A stretch of DNA of 64,000 nucleotides from Oscillospiraceae bacterium (lineage in GTDB: Bacteria > Bacillota > Clostridia > Saccharofermentanales > Saccharofermentanaceae): contig SVJC01000001.1 of the NCBI GenBank assembly GCA_015069215.1, positions 25,896 through 89,895 of the forward strand, in the 5' to 3' direction. Below are positions 6,082-54,331 of the stretch, one piece after another (within the stretch, counting starts at the first letter, position 1; each line of letters starts with the position of its first letter). Under the pieces are notes generated by a model that did not search any database, had not been told where the DNA came from, and was given only the letters and a program-made list of their open reading frames with translations. The translations under genes and the position numbers were made by a program.

Positions 6082-6350
6082 AAAAAAGTCCTGTGCCTAA
6101 AAAGACACAGGACAGAATATACTGCGGTACCACCTGTTTTGACTGCCGGGTTCTATGAGGTTGGCAGTCCACTCCGGTTCACGTTCCAACAAACGTGCTC
6201 TGCGGATAACGGGAGAGTTCCCGTCGGGCCATTTCCTGCCCGCCCGTCATCGGATCCATTCTCCGGCACCTCAGATCCGCAATCCCACCATCTGCGGCTC
6301 TCTCGTTCTTCGGTGTTCCCCGGGTACTATTTCCGAGTCATTCGGTTTAA
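6082..6350 (-). ncRNA. Trp-specific T-box riboswitch with terminator
   Basis: Minus strand: GA motif GGAAATAGTACC, AGAGAGC and GATGGTGGGA boxes, specifier GAA-TGG-A (UGG at 6256-6258), T-box AAACAGGTGGTACCGC (GGTGGTACCGC core 6124-6134), terminator GTCCTGTGTC/GGCACAGGAC plus T6 (6082-6113). Confidence 0.92.
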
Positions 6351-9657: not shown

Positions 9658-9781
9658 GGAACACAATTCGGGACACGTATTTATCAGATTACGTGTCCCG
9701 TTTCGTGAATATCTCTTTGAATTCACATTTTGGAACACGGATCTGGTCATTTTCGTGTCCCATTTCGTGAATATTAAAATA
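9658..9781. repeat. Two tandem 62-nt palindromic units (element A)
   Basis: CGGGACACGTA/TACGTGTCCCG inverted repeat (9669-9700). CGTGTCCCRTTTCGTGAATAT occurs at 9692 and 9754 with 1 mismatch in 21. Half-sites are spaced 12 nt apart. Confidence 0.8.
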
Positions 9782-49403: not shown

Positions 49404-51131
49404 TCACGCGTTCCACTTGTAAAGTCCGGCATAAATGCCGTTTTTTGCCATGAGCTCGTCGTGCGTTCCGCTTTCTTCGATCCCGTTCTCGGTAAGGACA
49501 AGAATACGCTCGGCATTCCTGACGGTTGAAAGACGGTGCGCGATGACCAGCGTCGTTCTGTTCTTCGCGAGCTTTTCCAAAGACTCTTTTACGATGTTCT
49601 CGCTCTCGTTATCGAGTGCGCTCGTCGCCTCATCGAAAATGAGTATCGGCGGGTTCTTGAGGAACACTCTCGCGATCGAGAGCCTCTGCTTCTGGCCGCC
49701 GGAGAGCTTGATTCCGCGCTGTCCGATGTCGGTATCGTAGCCGTTCGGAAGCTCCATGATGAAGTCATGCGCATTCGCAAGCTTTGCCGCTTCGATTATC
49801 TCTTCTCTCGTTGAACCGGGCTTACCGTAACTGATGTTTTCAATAACGGTTCCCGCGAAAAGATATACGTCCTGCTGGACGATACCGATGTGATCACGGA
49901 GGCTCTTGAGCTTGATGTCACGGATATCCTTGCCGTCGATCCTGATGGCTCCTCCGGTAACATCGTAGAACCTCGGAATGAGGCTGCAGAGAGTCGTCTT
50001 GCCGCCGCCTGAAGAACCTACGAGAGCGACATAAGAACCCGCTTCGATATCGAGATTGATGTGGCGCAGGACTCTGTGTGCGCCTTCCTTGTATTTGAAC
50101 GAGACATCATCAAAAACGATGTCGCCTTTGACGTCGCTCATCTCGACAGCGCCTTCTTTATCCTTGATGTCAGGCTCTATGTTCATGATCTCCATGAATC
50201 TCTCAAAGCCCGTGTAGCCGTTCTGGAACTGCTCGGTGAAATCAACGATTACCCTTATCGGTTCGGTGAACGTGTTGATGTAAAGGATGAATGCGATGAA
50301 ATCAGGAATCTGAACGAGTCCGTCGGATATCAGTATCGCGCCTGCAATGATGACTGCAATGTTGATGAGCAGTATGAAAGCAGTCATGCCTGACTGGAAC
50401 AATCCGAGATACAGATAACTGTTCTTTTTCGATCTCAGGAAAGCATCGTTGCCTTCCCTGAACTTTTCCATCTCGATGTCTTCATTTGCAAAAGACTTTA
50501 CGACCCTGATCCCGGAGAGGTTATCTTCAGCTCTGGAATTGATCTCAGCTACCTTCTGTCTGTTGGCTTTAAACGCTCTCCTCATCTTTTTGTTGAGAAG
50601 GAAGACAAACAGGAACATGAACGGAAGCAGAATAAACGCAGCCGCCGTCAGATACTTGCTGATGCCCATCAGGATGACGAACGCACCGACTATCTTGATA
50701 AGCGATATCACGATGTTCTCAGGTCCGTGATGCAGGAGCTCCGTTATCTCAAACAGGTCGTTCGTGATTCTGCTCATGAGCTGACCTGTCTTCTGGTCAT
50801 CGTAGAACGAGAATGAAAGCTTCTGCAGATGCGAGAAGATCTCGGCGCGCATGTTGTATTCCATTTTCGCACCCATGACGTGACCAACGTTCGTAATGTA
50901 GTAATTCGAGAAAAACTGGATGATGACAAGACCTATAAGGATCAGTCCGAGATGGACGATCCTCTCCCTTGCACCTGTCTCAAGATAGATGACCTCAGAA
51001 GTGATGTAGCGTACGATAAGCGGAACAACGAGCGCGATAGCCGAAGCCACAACGGCAAAGAACATATCCAGAAGGAATGTTCCCATGTAAGGCTTATAGT
51101 AGCTGATCAGCTTTCTAAGATTCTTTCCCAT
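49404..51131 (-). CDS. ABC transporter permease/ATP-binding fusion
   Basis: Six-TM domain, GSSGGGKTT, LSGGQKQR and ILIFDEATSALD. Confidence 0.95.
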   Translation of the reverse strand: MGKNLRKLISYYKPYMGTFLLDMFFAVVASAIALVVPLIVRYITSEVIYLETGARERIVHLGLILIGLVIIQFFSNYYITNVGHVMGAKMEYNMRAEIFSHLQKLSFSFYDDQKTGQLMSRITNDLFEITELLHHGPENIVISLIKIVGAFVILMGISKYLTAAAFILLPFMFLFVFLLNKKMRRAFKANRQKVAEINSRAEDNLSGIRVVKSFANEDIEMEKFREGNDAFLRSKKNSYLYLGLFQSGMTAFILLINIAVIIAGAILISDGLVQIPDFIAFILYINTFTEPIRVIVDFTEQFQNGYTGFERFMEIMNIEPDIKDKEGAVEMSDVKGDIVFDDVSFKYKEGAHRVLRHINLDIEAGSYVALVGSSGGGKTTLCSLIPRFYDVTGGAIRIDGKDIRDIKLKSLRDHIGIVQQDVYLFAGTVIENISYGKPGSTREEIIEAAKLANAHDFIMELPNGYDTDIGQRGIKLSGGQKQRLSIARVFLKNPPILIFDEATSALDNESENIVKESLEKLAKNRTTLVIAHRLSTVRNAERILVLTENGIEESGTHDELMAKNGIYAGLYKWNA

Positions 51132-51572: not shown

Positions 51573-51717
51573 TTTTCACCCCCTATAAATATAAAAGCTA
51601 TTCTATCACAAGCATATCAGGTTTTAGGGGACAGGATATTCATGCTGACATATCAGTTAAAGGGATCTGCAAAATGAATATCAAAAAGCCGGAGAAAAAG
51701 AATAAGAAAAAAGACGC

Positions 51718-51841
51718 GTAAACTTTTCCGTAAACAATTCGGCCCGAAAAGTTTACGTTTGAGTTTACTTTTTCGAAGAGTAAACAAAAGCGTAAACATT
51801 TTGCTTGAAAATGTTTACGCCTGAGTTTACGTTATTATTTT
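51718..51841. repeat. Two tandem 62-nt palindromic units (element B)
   Basis: GTAAAC at 51718, 51730, 51780 and 51792; GTTTAC at 51751, 51763, 51813 and 51825. Confidence 0.9.
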
Positions 51842-51857
51842 GTTGTTTCCGGAAAGC

Positions 51858-52535
51858 TTAAGTGAGCGGTTTGCCACACCTGGGGCAGAACTTTCCGTTG
51901 CCTCTGGGAGCACCACAGTTGGTGCAGAACCTGCTCTTAGGTGCTGCGGCTGCCAACGGAGCAGCTGCTGCGGCAGATCCTGCTGCGTCACCCCTCATCT
52001 GATTGACCTGTTCCATGATGCGCTGCATGTCAGCAGCCTGTGCAGCCATTATCTTTTGGGCCTGATCTTCAGCCTGGCGGCGCTGATTCAACGACATTTG
52101 GCTCAGTTCCTGCTGTGCCCTTTTGTTGGCTTCTTCCATTGCCTTCATCTGATCTGCGGTAGACTGGGCAGTGAAAGAGCTCATCTTTTCCATGCTTGAG
52201 ATCCTGCTCATTGAGTCGGCATCAGGAGCAATCTCCGTAATGGAGAATGAGTCGATCGTGATATTCTTCGCACCGAGTGCAGATGCGACTTCCTGACCTA
52301 TGACATGACCCCTGGAAGGAAGATCCTTGTAAGAGATCATCCCACATTCCAGTTTAAAGAGCTGTTCCTGGATGACCGATAAGATCAATGACTGAACAAA
52401 TTCAACGTCAGTCTCATTACCTCCGCGGTCAGGGCATGACACTTCCGCCTCGCCCTTGACATCAAGACCGACAGATCTGTAATCAGGATCACCGTAAGGC
52501 ATTCTCTTTGAAAAAGCGACAGTAAAGTTTCCCAT
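51858..52535 (-). CDS. SPFH/band-7-like domain + coiled coil + zinc ribbon
   Basis: V.G...V, L..K..SY..LP and I.IDSFSI.EI.P pattern; Q/M/A-rich helix; FCTNCGAPRGNGKFCPRCG. Confidence 0.65.
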   Translation of the reverse strand: MGNFTVAFSKRMPYGDPDYRSVGLDVKGEAEVSCPDRGGNETDVEFVQSLILSVIQEQLFKLECGMISYKDLPSRGHVIGQEVASALGAKNITIDSFSITEIAPDADSMSRISSMEKMSSFTAQSTADQMKAMEEANKRAQQELSQMSLNQRRQAEDQAQKIMAAQAADMQRIMEQVNQMRGDAAGSAAAAAPLAAAAPKSRFCTNCGAPRGNGKFCPRCGKPLT

Positions 52536-52574: not shown

Positions 52575-53123
52575 TCACAATTCTTTATACATCAGTATCT
52601 CATCGTGAAGGGTTCCGTCATCAAATCTTAAGGCGTGATGACGTACTCCGGTCTCGATGAATCCGCACTTCTTATAGGCCGCAAGAGCCCTGTCGTTTCC
52701 TGAAACGACTTCGAGATCAATCTGTTTCCAGCCAACCTGTCTTGCAAGCTCGGTAAGGTATTCGAGCATGGCTGTTCCGATGCCCAAACCCCAGTATTCT
52801 TTGTAAAGCGCGATCGCAAGTGAACAGCGGTGCCAGAGCTTCCTCTGGTAGCCGATCCCGTTCACACCCGCGTTACCTGCAACCTTGCCGTCAACTACCG
52901 CAACCATCATGATCGCATAAGGATTTTCAAGAAAATCATCAAGGATCTTCTGTTCCTCCTCAAGCGTCCATTTGACTTCATCCGGGTATCTCAAAAGGAA
53001 ATCCGTCTCGTCAGGCGTCTTCTTCAGATACTCGAGCATCTGCTCCGCATATTCTGATGAGTTCGGCTTAAGTATGCACTGTCTTCCGTCTTTGAGAGTG
53101 ATCTCTCTTTCTTCAAATCTCAT
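52575..53123 (-). CDS. GNAT family N-acetyltransferase (RimJ/RimL-like)
   Basis: EYWGLGIG and LEV...N.RA...YKKCGF. Confidence 0.9.
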   Translation of the reverse strand: MRFEEREITLKDGRQCILKPNSSEYAEQMLEYLKKTPDETDFLLRYPDEVKWTLEEEQKILDDFLENPYAIMMVAVVDGKVAGNAGVNGIGYQRKLWHRCSLAIALYKEYWGLGIGTAMLEYLTELARQVGWKQIDLEVVSGNDRALAAYKKCGFIETGVRHHALRFDDGTLHDEILMYKEL

Positions 53124-54262
53124 GGTTGTTAATCCTCCGGAACGAATATCGCTTTGTAGAAATATGCCTTCAGACGCACGAGATCACCGTCAAGGCTCTT
53201 TTCTTCCTCCGTTACGAGAAGGCCGTGACTGTCATAGATATATGTCATGACATAGCCGGTATTTTTCTCTTCTCCCTTATAGGTCTTTCTCCAGGTCTTC
53301 ACTGTCTTGGAAGTCATGTGCCCGTTGCTGTCATAGGTATATGCGGTCTCAGTCTTGCGCTCGATTTCACCCTTGCTCTTAAAAGTTGAAAGGACCTCGT
53401 CGCCGTGCTCGTTATAGGTATATTCATCTATCGAGCCGGTGCTTTTTGATTCGCTCTTGAGCTTCTTGTTTTCGGCATCATAAGTGGTAATTGTATATCC
53501 GTTATCGACACTGTAGCCGGTCATCTTCCCGCTGCTGTATTCATATGTGGTGGTCTTGTTTCCGATGGTCTCAGTCTTTACCTCGCCGTTCTCATCGTAC
53601 GTTATCTTAATGATCTCGGGTTCCGGGATATCGAAGGATTGATTAAGCTTCAGGCACGTTTTAGTGCCGGGCGGATCTGCCGGATACTTTGTCGTTTTGT
53701 CAGCCGAACTGTCGTAGCTTGAGACAAGGTGGCCTTCTTCATTGTATTCATAATCGTATTCCCGGACTTTTTCTTTCTGCTTTATCCTATAGCAAACGAG
53801 ATACCCTTTACCGTTGTATTCGTATTCACATTCGTATTCGAATACCGGTTCGGCGGAACTGAAAAAATGACCCGAACTTTTCTGCTTTTTGGCAATTAAA
53901 AGCCCGCCGTCGTTATAAGTCTGCTCGCGCCGGAGAGTCTCGCCGTCAAGAACTTTATCCAGGATCAAGGTCATATTTCCGTTGCTGTCATATTCATAAA
54001 TATGCTCAGTCTTGTTGCGGCCCATGCCGGAGATCCATTCCCTGACGGGAACATACTTGACCTTCATGCTTTCCGGAATGTCACCGGCCAGCTCTTCGAC
54101 GAAATCACCTTTGGCGATCGCAGCTTTAAGTTCGTTGAGATATACGCTCTTATTGAAAGTACCTTTAAGATGAATGCAGCCGGTCATCGAAAAAGCGGTC
54201 ACGACAGCACTGACAGCGCAGAGCGCCTTCTTAAGACAGTTGAGCATCTGCTCCGCATATTC
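53034..54262. repeat. 21-bp perfect direct repeat (53034-53054 and 54242-54262) inside a diverged 105-bp duplication
   Basis: GAGCATCTGCTCCGCATATTC in both places. Codons 1-35 of the two ORFs are 29/35 identical in protein, with 10 synonymous differences. Confidence 0.9.
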
Positions 54263-54331
54263 GGATGAATTGGGTTTCAGAATGCACTTTCTGCCGTCTT
54301 TAAGAATGATCTCTCTTTCCGCGAATTTCAT
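53129..54331 (-). CDS. YD-repeat-like lipoprotein carrying a GNAT-derived N-terminal 35 aa (alternative start 54247)
   Basis: MKFAEREIILKDGRKCILKPNSSEYAEQMLNCLKK, then signal-like ALCAVSAVVTAFSMTGC, and repeated YEYDSNGN, YEYNEEG, YTYNEHGD and YTYDSNGH. Confidence 0.8.
   Translation of the reverse strand: MKFAEREIILKDGRKCILKPNSSEYAEQMLNCLKKALCAVSAVVTAFSMTGCIHLKGTFNKSVYLNELKAAIAKGDFVEELAGDIPESMKVKYVPVREWISGMGRNKTEHIYEYDSNGNMTLILDKVLDGETLRREQTYNDGGLLIAKKQKSSGHFFSSAEPVFEYECEYEYNGKGYLVCYRIKQKEKVREYDYEYNEEGHLVSSYDSSADKTTKYPADPPGTKTCLKLNQSFDIPEPEIIKITYDENGEVKTETIGNKTTTYEYSSGKMTGYSVDNGYTITTYDAENKKLKSESKSTGSIDEYTYNEHGDEVLSTFKSKGEIERKTETAYTYDSNGHMTSKTVKTWRKTYKGEEKNTGYVMTYIYDSHGLLVTEEEKSLDGDLVRLKAYFYKAIFVPED

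Follow-up and report, generated by a model that had tools for sequence, protein, structure and literature searches.

What is the role of a palindrome that is repeated at a fixed spacing between two bacterial genes? The question is raised by a 64,000-nucleotide stretch of contig SVJC01000001.1 (assembly GCA_015069215.1, Oscillospiraceae bacterium), referred to below as the window, in which a model reading only the letters (the sequence-only reading) had picked out eight GTAAAC/GTTTAC boxes behind a gene, here called element B, and an element A of similar build 42 kb away. On balance, we lean toward element B being a dispersed copy, at a gene 3' end, of a non-coding tandem palindrome family that occurs in rumen and gut Clostridia and is engaged in a nuclease-repeat partnership resembling that of repetitive extragenic palindromic (REP) sequences with RAYT enzymes. 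The candidate partner is a protein of about 260 amino acids (aa), p267, whose gene lies outside the window.

Geometry and copies of the element family

Element B carries GTAAAC at 51718, 51730, 51780, and 51792 and GTTTAC at 51751, 51763, 51813, and 51825, that is, boxes at offsets 0/12/33/45 which repeat at +62 nt over a span of 51718-51830. It consists of two 51-nt imperfect palindromes with an 11-nt T/A linker between them (Table 1). The exact 12-21-12 / 62-nt lattice and the difference in spacers between units that the sequence-only reading had described were both confirmed: the spacer sequences of units 1 and 2 are not alike while the box positions are the same, and a lattice score over the eight box positions reached 48/48 at 51718 and no more than 31-33 in shuffled windows. 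The arrangement GTAAAC-N6-GTAAAC occurs four times in the window, always within element B, and was absent from 100 shuffles. Outside the element, the hexamer was counted 24 times on both strands, with ~17 expected for the whole window; as a word on its own, then, it is not dispersed across the genome.

When folded as RNA or as single-stranded DNA, elements A and B were both far beyond their shuffles (z -6.0, -4.4, -6.2, and -5.4, the RNA folds giving -6.0 for B and -4.4 for A). Each element folds as two hairpins composed of an outer stem, an internal loop, and an inner stem; in unit 2 of element B, the inner stem forms a 13-bp hairpin without mismatches (CGTAAACATTTTG / AAAATGTTTACG region), and unit 1 forms the second hairpin in minus-strand transcripts. 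Because all boxes are alike, alternative folds are available, including a hairpin across the linker made of the linker and its two neighboring boxes. On the duplex, coordinate arithmetic places all eight boxes within about +/-2 bp of one helical face, with dyad centers 31 bp apart.

We then scanned one genome per species, 596 Gb in total, for the four-box pattern of the B unit, for which ~0.02 chance matches are expected. The scan returned 18 stretches, 12 of which (13 element loci) belong to four rumen Clostridiales/Ruminococcaceae metagenome-assembled genomes (MAGs); one of these, RGIG8128, holds 8 B elements on five contigs. The sequence-only reading had named a lone simple terminator with no geometry-matched loci elsewhere as the outcome that would speak against a family, and the 13 loci clearly point the other way. 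Re-scanning them with mismatches allowed gave 24 units, all of them 51 nt long with a 15-nt center. Eleven of the 13 elements have two units at a period of 62 (63 once) and the other two have a single unit. The boxes are 90-100% conserved, the 5-6 nt inter-box spacers are variable and pair 20-60% of the time, and the consensus has an inner box CGTAAAC, a center wTTTT-N5-AAAAw, and a linker TTTT-NNN-AAAA that is itself a small dyad. Copies on one contig have private variants in common, such as CTTTAC in box 4 of L023, L026a, and L026b, a pattern that in sequence comparison points to local copying or gene conversion.

Element A, located 17 nt past the stop of a transmembrane/Zn-ribbon gene, has boxes 12 nt apart and a period of 62, which bears out the claim that it combines the geometry of element B with another core word. 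Scored on the exact offsets of B it reached 34/48, barely over shuffles; the period and architecture are nonetheless common to both. The A pattern retrieved a second dispersed family from metagenomes, with 50-nt units, a 12-nt linker, a period of 62, and no more than three units. In this family, the 4-nt A/T parts of a unit's two spacers set A4 against A4 or T4 against T4 and pair 10% of the time, which leaves the internal loop systematically open and gives the unit a polarity. The polarity is the same in all units of one element and agreed with the orientation of the upstream gene in about 6/8 cases, which is no significant bias. Other box types with the 62 period exist as well, and the proposal of a family conserved in geometry and variable in sequence holds. 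We also agree that the elements are not a CRISPR array: only boxes of 6-7 nt are conserved, units number three at most, and no cas genes are nearby. In one locus present in two assemblies (L040:514-563 and L045:3796-3845), the two sequences differ only in the loop of unit 2, where 5 substitutions fall within 8 nt (GATCAGGG versus TTTTAAGG); this cluster suggests patchy gene conversion between element copies.

Several pattern matches were set aside. On an IMG/VR phage contig (L027:1504-1554), the B pattern matched a perfect 51-nt palindrome with fully complementary spacers and five GTAAAC/GTTTAC words, an ordinary long hairpin; it was the sole B-pattern match among the viral contigs scanned, where the A pattern had none. 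GC-rich A-pattern matches in coding DNA (L029, L030, L032, L038, L043, L044, L047) were attributed to chance. GTAAAC/GTTTAC matches from Dehalococcoidales and Kofleriaceae (L009, L010) have no relation to the lattice family, and the same holds for matches of 48 nt in Bacteroidales and other MAGs. The latter (L015:5976-6023, L016:5039-5086, L017:336-383, L019:5815-5862, and L024:3466-3513) lie in a ~200-nt region that is near-identical across orders, in MAGs of Scatosoma, Clostridia, Alloprevotella, Paludibacteraceae, and Rikenellaceae. With its many GTAAAC/GTTTAC words, (CAA/CGAA)n tracts, and CTATATAGCTATATAG, this region looks like part of a widely shared mobile element (iterons or origin).

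All copies of the family are intergenic, and for most the start is 0-90 nt behind a stop codon. By the genes on either side, 23 elements divide into 6 convergent, 9 co-directional, and 4 divergent cases (two of these four being copies upstream of p267 genes) and 4 that could not be classed. The sequence-only reading had also tied both elements to zinc-ribbon genes. This did not hold: such a gene precedes the two window copies but 0 of about 17 others, so the link is coincidental. G+C-rich intrinsic terminators often stand right beside elements (L025, L033, L035, L037), therefore the elements are probably not the main terminators.

In DNA sequencing runs with the window's organism, the main contig spans both B units, and further short contigs of the box-linker-box junction stand at 6.7x, 8.6x, and 15x the depth of single-copy sequence. 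In the same runs, numerous contigs with different flanks meet element B at 51716/7, 51768, and 51831, which marks the borders of the element and indicates that it is multicopy in those samples. The number of units is polymorphic. At the orthologous site in RUG12081, with flanks ~97% identical, only unit 1 is present and the difference is an exact 62-nt indel comprising unit 2 and the linker; in another orthologous gap, the units number two in L012 and one in L018. No information came from same-species contigs (L001-L008), which were 100% identical. Among the DUF5680 orthologues, where an empty site was sought, L072 has a different context.

The p267 gene and the elements beside it

The elements have a constant partner outside the window, a gene for a nuclease-like protein that the sequence-only reading missed. 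At locus L026 of RGIG8128, two 96% identical B elements bracket a 267-aa orphan gene, p267, next to tRNA-Glu. A Pfam and NCBIfam search of its product gave no match. Relatives of p267 are hypothetical proteins of ~260 aa from Clostridiales, Lachnospiraceae, Butyrivibrio, and Saccharofermentans, often encoded on 1-2 kb contigs. Within a lineage the gene is single-copy and syntenic, on which grounds we rejected p267 as the transposase of a multicopy insertion sequence.

In 10/10 p267 loci, taken from different lineages and neighborhoods, a hairpin pair with a 62-nt period lies no more than 300 nt from the gene. Six of these loci have it on both flanks, as direct repeats 72-97% identical: in five, the flanking copies are 88-97% identical in direct and 68-75% in inverted orientation, and in L061 the values are 72% and 70%. 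A strict detector run over 115.5 kb of p267 loci returned 12 clusters, 11 of them beside p267 and one false (low-complexity coding DNA), with 0 in shuffles; the degenerate copies in L061 and L064 escaped it and were identified by eye. The box words (Table 1) follow the p267 clade. GTAAAC goes with the clade of at least 65% identity (L026, L061, L076), GACACG with L034/L073 (61%), and GTACG with L048/L051 (71%).

An alignment of 44 p267 homologues revealed the invariant motifs YRS.AE, FKYEP, PDF, and E...CK..EH.G, in an order that we take to be that of a PD-(D/E)xK (TnsA-N/Vsr-like) active site; D181, E188, and K193 (numbering of protein P0001) are among the invariant residues. Searching PHROGs with p267 found a Holliday-junction resolvase family (E 1e-5) and endonuclease families, and in a PADLOC search its C-domain matched the C-terminal ~120 residues of the candidate PDC-S68 (E 5e-13). 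A profile of p267 against PDB sequences gave no match. AlphaFold2 with the alignment produced a model with a predicted local distance difference test score (pLDDT) of 87.8 and a predicted template modeling score (pTM) of 0.81, in which an N-terminal alpha-beta-beta-beta-alpha domain is predicted to precede a C-terminal alpha/beta domain. The PDB structures that Foldseek matched to this model were all nucleases (Bax1, DrdV, MunI, OkrAI, Can2), and its matches among the predicted viral structures of BFVD (E 5e-5 to 5e-2) were restriction enzymes, endonucleases, DUF2726, TnsA_N, endonuclease I, and resolvases. Given these motifs and the sequence and structure matches, the modeled C-domain of p267 very likely has a PD-(D/E)xK nuclease fold.

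Four DNA runs contain a p267-homologous contig of 990-1194 nt that is broken at both flanks and has ~81% nucleotide identity to the L026 gene. Its depths of 19.1/17.4/2.1/3.4 compare with 18.7/20.6/3.9/3.3 for the window contig in the same runs, and by this correlation of depth the window's organism probably carries a single-copy p267. Together with the junction contigs, metagenome depth suggests one p267 gene and about 7-15 element copies in this organism.

Three further features of the p267 loci were recorded. Upstream of every p267-family gene examined, whatever its box type, stand two or three TTGTCGG direct repeats with a period of 10-11 nt (CCGACAA on the other strand; L026:1140-1170, L034:9105-9135, L050:2428-2460, L051:2440-2480, L061:9940-9975, L073:2940-2970, L076:2850-2880), which resemble an operator or promoter element common to the family and separate from the lattice boxes. 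The L076 locus adjoins a gene for a 1073-aa TIR/ThsB-like protein with a beta-propeller (L076:3924-6696), and is possibly a defense-gene neighborhood. Finally, a DNA contig of run X12 (depth 17.2) joins L026:282 to 1325, skipping 1042 nt and with 5 odd letters between; this could be a p267-less allele, a circle junction, or merely another element locus.

What the elements and p267 may do together

Among the three options offered by the sequence-only reading (REP/REPIN-like palindromes, protein-binding arrays, and 3' untranslated region (UTR) RNA structures), the REP/REPIN-like one comes closest, with the inverted two-REP structure of a REPIN, the GTAG/CGTC tag, and a RAYT as the flanked gene all lacking. 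As described, REP/BIME-RAYT systems (REPtron, REPIN-RAYT) resemble ours in having short multicopy extragenic imperfect palindromes, in regular composite arrays and mostly at gene 3' ends, of which several sequence families may coexist in one genome. Each family goes with one nuclease gene, present in a single copy and inherited vertically, which has the repeats on its flanks and with which the repeat co-varies; RAYTs are described as single-copy and syntenic, as p267 is within lineages. Classical REPs conserve a GTAG or CGTC tetranucleotide at one palindrome end (PMC3733652). By contrast, B units start with (C)GTAAAC and A units with TTCACG, the partner is not an HUH/Y1 transposase but a PD-(D/E)xK-like protein without a Pfam family, copies number tens or fewer rather than the >100 typical of REPs, the hosts are Clostridia, the copies flanking the gene are direct repeats, and mobility is putative. 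A REPIN consists of two inverted REPs in one long hairpin, whereas the palindromes here are of 50-51 nt with four boxes, in tandem direct order at a fixed 62-nt period. Without an HUH/Y1 transposase or a GTAG/CGTC tag, and with direct units, the system would therefore work like REP/RAYT and not be a member of that family: by analogy, elements and p267 match the REP/BIME-RAYT logic without its defining molecular features.

Other known systems fit in part. Integron attC sites are likewise palindromes variable in sequence and conserved in structure, lie after gene ends, and when folded show two boxes, an unpaired spacer, and a variable loop; here, however, there is no integron integrase among the neighbors and no cassette array, the host belongs to the Firmicutes, the palindromes come as tandem pairs, the boxes are identical direct repeats per arm with symmetric 12/12 spacing and no extrahelical bases, and the RYYYAAC/GTTRRRY consensus is matched only at AAC/GTT. 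The inverted pairs of DNA uptake sequences (DUS) or uptake signal sequences (USS) in Neisseria and Haemophilus, which double as terminators, resemble the elements by an exact short word, drifting intervening sequence, and hairpins after genes, but our word is not over-represented outside the elements, which have a rigid four-box lattice with 62-nt phasing and an associated nuclease-like gene. For miniature inverted-repeat transposable elements, there was no consistent duplication at the 13 B loci, and the polymorphism seen was of unit number only. LacI-, CodY-, Rex-, parS-, RTP/Ter-, and WalR-type sites were set aside for unfit box spacing or orientation and for the position of our copies at gene 3' ends. 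Regarding the protein, the TnsA N-domain, T7 endonuclease I, and Hjc/RecU-type resolvases resemble the p267 C-domain in motif order (S..E, YEP, PDF, E..CK) and in fold-level matches. Cruciform-extruding palindromes are natural substrates of structure-specific PD-(D/E)xK nucleases. From these enzymes p267 differs in its extra N-terminal domain, in the absence of a significant sequence or PDB match, in its putative activity, and in an apparent sequence specificity suggested by box co-variation.

In the partnership that we favor, the elements would be the cognate sites of the single-copy ~260-aa p267 protein. A folded unit, as a hairpin or cruciform arm, would present two identical duplex boxes of 6-7 bp, 12 nt apart, with a mismatched internal loop between them. 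On the folded or duplex element, the protein would recognize the repeated boxes, of which each arm has two at a distance of one helical turn, and would nick or cut there, perhaps on an extruded cruciform or hairpin; repair or replication could then copy elements to other intergenic sites and alter the unit number (1-3). At element B itself, the consequence would probably be modest: a side effect of two stable 3' hairpins and a U-rich tail on the mRNA of the zinc-ribbon gene. We put forward more tentatively, and with less than even confidence, the wider proposal of a previously unrecognized PD-(D/E)xK-type family that co-evolves with, is bracketed by, and acts on four-box palindromes phased at 62 bp, either spreading them by a route that is non-HUH, non-DDE, and non-recombinase or using them as genome-wide structural or transcriptional punctuation.

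A number of observations weigh against such a partnership. The Foldseek matches of p267 in the PDB were weak and none was significant (best E 5e-3). The window has no p267 homologue (tblastn over its 64 kb), and depth correlation is the sole basis for assigning the gene to the window's organism. Copy number is modest, around 8-15 and not hundreds, and the copies flanking p267 are in direct orientation where those of REPtrons are inverted. Conservation is much higher in the boxes than in the spacers, a pattern that resembles purifying selection on binding sites more than recent transposition. The 62 period persists even in loci whose hairpins span only 31 nt, with 31-nt linkers between them (L048, L051, L073), and this fits a spacing constraint on duplex DNA better than a model of two adjacent hairpins. 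Comparison of orthologous gaps, proposed by the sequence-only reading, brought out the unit-number polymorphism in RUG12081, but no target duplication, excision joint, or clean empty site was found at the 13 B loci or among the DUF5680 orthologues, and mobility is for that reason unproven. A more distant orthologous locus, L070, has a different gene in the element B gap.

The gap at L070 (L070:1678-2400, with a DUF5680 protein 90% identical) encodes, on the opposite strand, a predicted membrane protein of 240 aa that has no Pfam match; a NUDIX gene is also inserted after the ABC exporter there.

Near-invariant boxes with drifting spacers, a 62-bp phasing that holds whatever the hairpin length, the alignment of all eight B boxes on one helical face, a position mostly just past stop codons (6/19 between convergent genes), and the lack of target duplications would also suit fixed, immobile sites on duplex DNA. 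On such host-selected sites, p267 would be a sequence-specific protein that binds or nicks DNA, and its oligomer would assemble, for example, as a bidirectional transcription roadblock or insulator at gene ends or as a chromosome-structuring site, and the p267-flanking copies would insulate or autoregulate the gene. We consider this unlikely, if the strongest of the alternatives. A role in termination would be redundant next to the true intrinsic terminators that often stand alongside, and invariant residues of catalytic type are unexpected in a pure binder; the private variants common to copies on one contig and the differences in unit number between orthologous sites also speak against it, and the A4/A4 or T4/T4 spacers of the A family would be needless in a symmetric duplex site. 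Somewhat less probable again is an RNA element, whose hairpins would stabilize or terminate transcripts in the 3' UTR, or be substrates for p267 as an RNA-binding protein or structure-specific RNase; the DNA copies would be retained for that function. The two tandem RNA hairpins and the position of most copies after stop codons agree with this, as does the alpha-beta3-alpha order of the p267 N-domain, found also in the double-stranded RNA-binding domain, but the corresponding Foldseek matches are of low probability and the structural matches of p267 are all DNases. Stem transition mismatches on the sense strand of the upstream gene are G.U in 14 cases and A.C in 5, a count drawn from related copies and not significant; hairpin 1 is flagged as terminator-like and metatranscriptome contigs end in it, but contig ends at palindromes may be assembly artefacts. 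Moreover, transcription is not obvious for the copies that lie upstream of the p267 promoter or in divergent promoter regions, the near-symmetric elements occur in both orientations relative to the upstream gene, and the B boxes show no compensatory change, single variants being uncompensated.

An att-site cassette, in which the p267 gene and one element circularize and integrate by recombination with a chromosomal element (attC-like or att-like), would leave direct repeats on both sides, as seen at the six doubly flanked loci, and could account for a p267 neighborhood that differs per lineage and is once next to tRNA-Glu; the folded unit also resembles a folded attC in its two boxes, unpaired central spacer, and variable loop. 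In this model, the dispersed elements would be candidate targets for integration. We find it improbable nevertheless. There is no associated tyrosine or serine recombinase, each lineage keeps one p267 gene in a syntenic position, the other elements that were seen all lack it, the boxes and consensus depart from attC as noted above, without the extrahelical-base asymmetry, and the X12 contig could simply be another locus. As for an ordinary, locus-specific tandem intrinsic terminator of the Zn-ribbon gene, element B does come after a stop codon with a T-rich tail next to it and one hairpin fits a terminator-like pattern, but the same lattice stands at 13 loci in four genomes where chance would give ~0.02, a second family has the same period, the association with one gene family is constant, and the stems are A+T-rich with internal loops, which leaves this explanation with hardly any credibility.

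The element B locus and the meaning of the proposed partnership

Element B lies between two minus-strand genes, with 145 nt between its end and the start of the DUF5680 gene (Table 1). The claim that it sits behind an SPFH-zinc-ribbon gene stood for the position past the stop codon; a domain search detected no SPFH/Band_7 domain in the 225-aa upstream protein (51858-52535), and its C-terminal CxxC...CxxC gave weak, sub-threshold Zn-ribbon matches. The region 51573-51665 is kept both in RUG12081 (L011), which has one unit, and in L070, which has no element; this places element B upstream of the DUF5680 promoter region and assigns it to the 3' end of the zinc-ribbon gene. From its sequence, the T-rich tract that follows may be the terminator tail of the 225-aa gene. 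A terminator scan with a lax pattern passed one B hairpin, which has 4 G-C pairs of 15 in A+T-rich stems. In metatranscriptomes, two contigs from the 225-aa gene enter the first hairpin and end at 51806 and 51785, a weak signal given that such contigs are too sparse for 3'-end mapping and that ends at palindromes are unreliable.

Table 1. Positions of the elements and neighboring genes in the window, and box words of the elements beside p267 genes
Feature	Position	Strand	Description	Basis
Element A	9660..9771	none	two 50-nt imperfect palindromes, 9660-9709 and 9722-9771; TTCACG/GACACG...CGTGTC/CGTGAA	
Element B, unit 1	51718..51768	none	GTAAAC N6 GTAAAC N15 GTTTAC N6 GTTTAC	sequence reading
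Element B, linker	51769..51779	none	TTTTTCGAAGA, 11 nt	sequence reading
Element B, unit 2	51780..51830	none	GTAAAC N6 GTAAAC N15 GTTTAC N6 GTTTAC	
Upstream gene, 225 aa	51858..52535	minus	element B in its 3' region, 27 nt after stop	
Downstream DUF5680 gene, 146 aa	51132..51572	minus		
ABC exporter	49404-51131		after DUF5680 gene	
DUF5680 promoter and leader region	51573..51665	minus	conserved in orthologous loci with one unit or without element	
T-rich tract	51688..51717	minus	GCGTCTTTTTTCTTATTCTTTTTCTCC; follows second hairpin on transcribed strand	sequence reading
Elements at L026, L061, L076	both p267 flanks		GTAAAC	
Elements at L034	both p267 flanks		TTCACG/GACACG, 2 and 3 units	
Elements at L073	both p267 flanks		(A/G)TGACACG	
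Elements at L064	both p267 flanks		TGAC-type ~95-nt repeat; geometry less clean, 61 nt between GTGACTG boxes	
Element at L050	downstream of p267		CGTACC/TGTACAC	
Element at L051	downstream of p267		TCGTAC-T6..A6-GTACGA	
Element at L048 (cultured Butyrivibrio sp. AE2032)	downstream of p267		GAGTACG	
Element at L067	upstream of p267		GACACG-like	

An Rfam 15 scan of the 64-kb window gave a T-box as the only match at gathering level, and for 51600-51900, scanned at an E-value threshold, the best E was about 1. The T-box leader (RF00230) lies at 6105-6350 on the minus strand and, with 95.1 bits, is barely over the gathering score. Further along the window, a 400-aa RHS-repeat open reading frame (53129-54331, minus) has its first ~30 residues near-identical to the N-terminus of the neighboring GNAT acetyltransferase (52575-53123, minus; MKFAEREIILKDGRKCILKPNSSEYAEQML versus MRFEEREITLKDGRQCILKPNSSEYAEQML), while its RUG12081 orthologue begins later, with MKKGLKKALCAVSA...; this suggests that the GNAT 5' end was partly duplicated and fused in frame, or that the start was miscalled.

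To our knowledge, REP-like repeats with a dedicated enzyme have been well studied only as HUH/RAYT systems in Proteobacteria. Our literature searches found no description of these elements or of the p267 family, and literature and library searches found no comparable system in Firmicutes. The elements also break metagenome assemblies, with p267 contigs typically of 1-2 kb.

The analysis yields two or more repeat families in uncultured rumen Clostridia that are defined by geometry and not by sequence, and a candidate cognate protein family without a Pfam, NCBIfam, or PDB name, for which there are a confident predicted structure and invariant residues of nuclease type. A cultured carrier, Butyrivibrio sp. 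AE2032 (GCA_000702965), allows direct tests of binding, cleavage, 3'-end formation, and element dynamics. If p267 does mobilize or read these sites, it would represent a second, independent origin of the lifestyle in which a repeat is paired with a domesticated nuclease, and p267 would be a new sequence-programmable recognition module.

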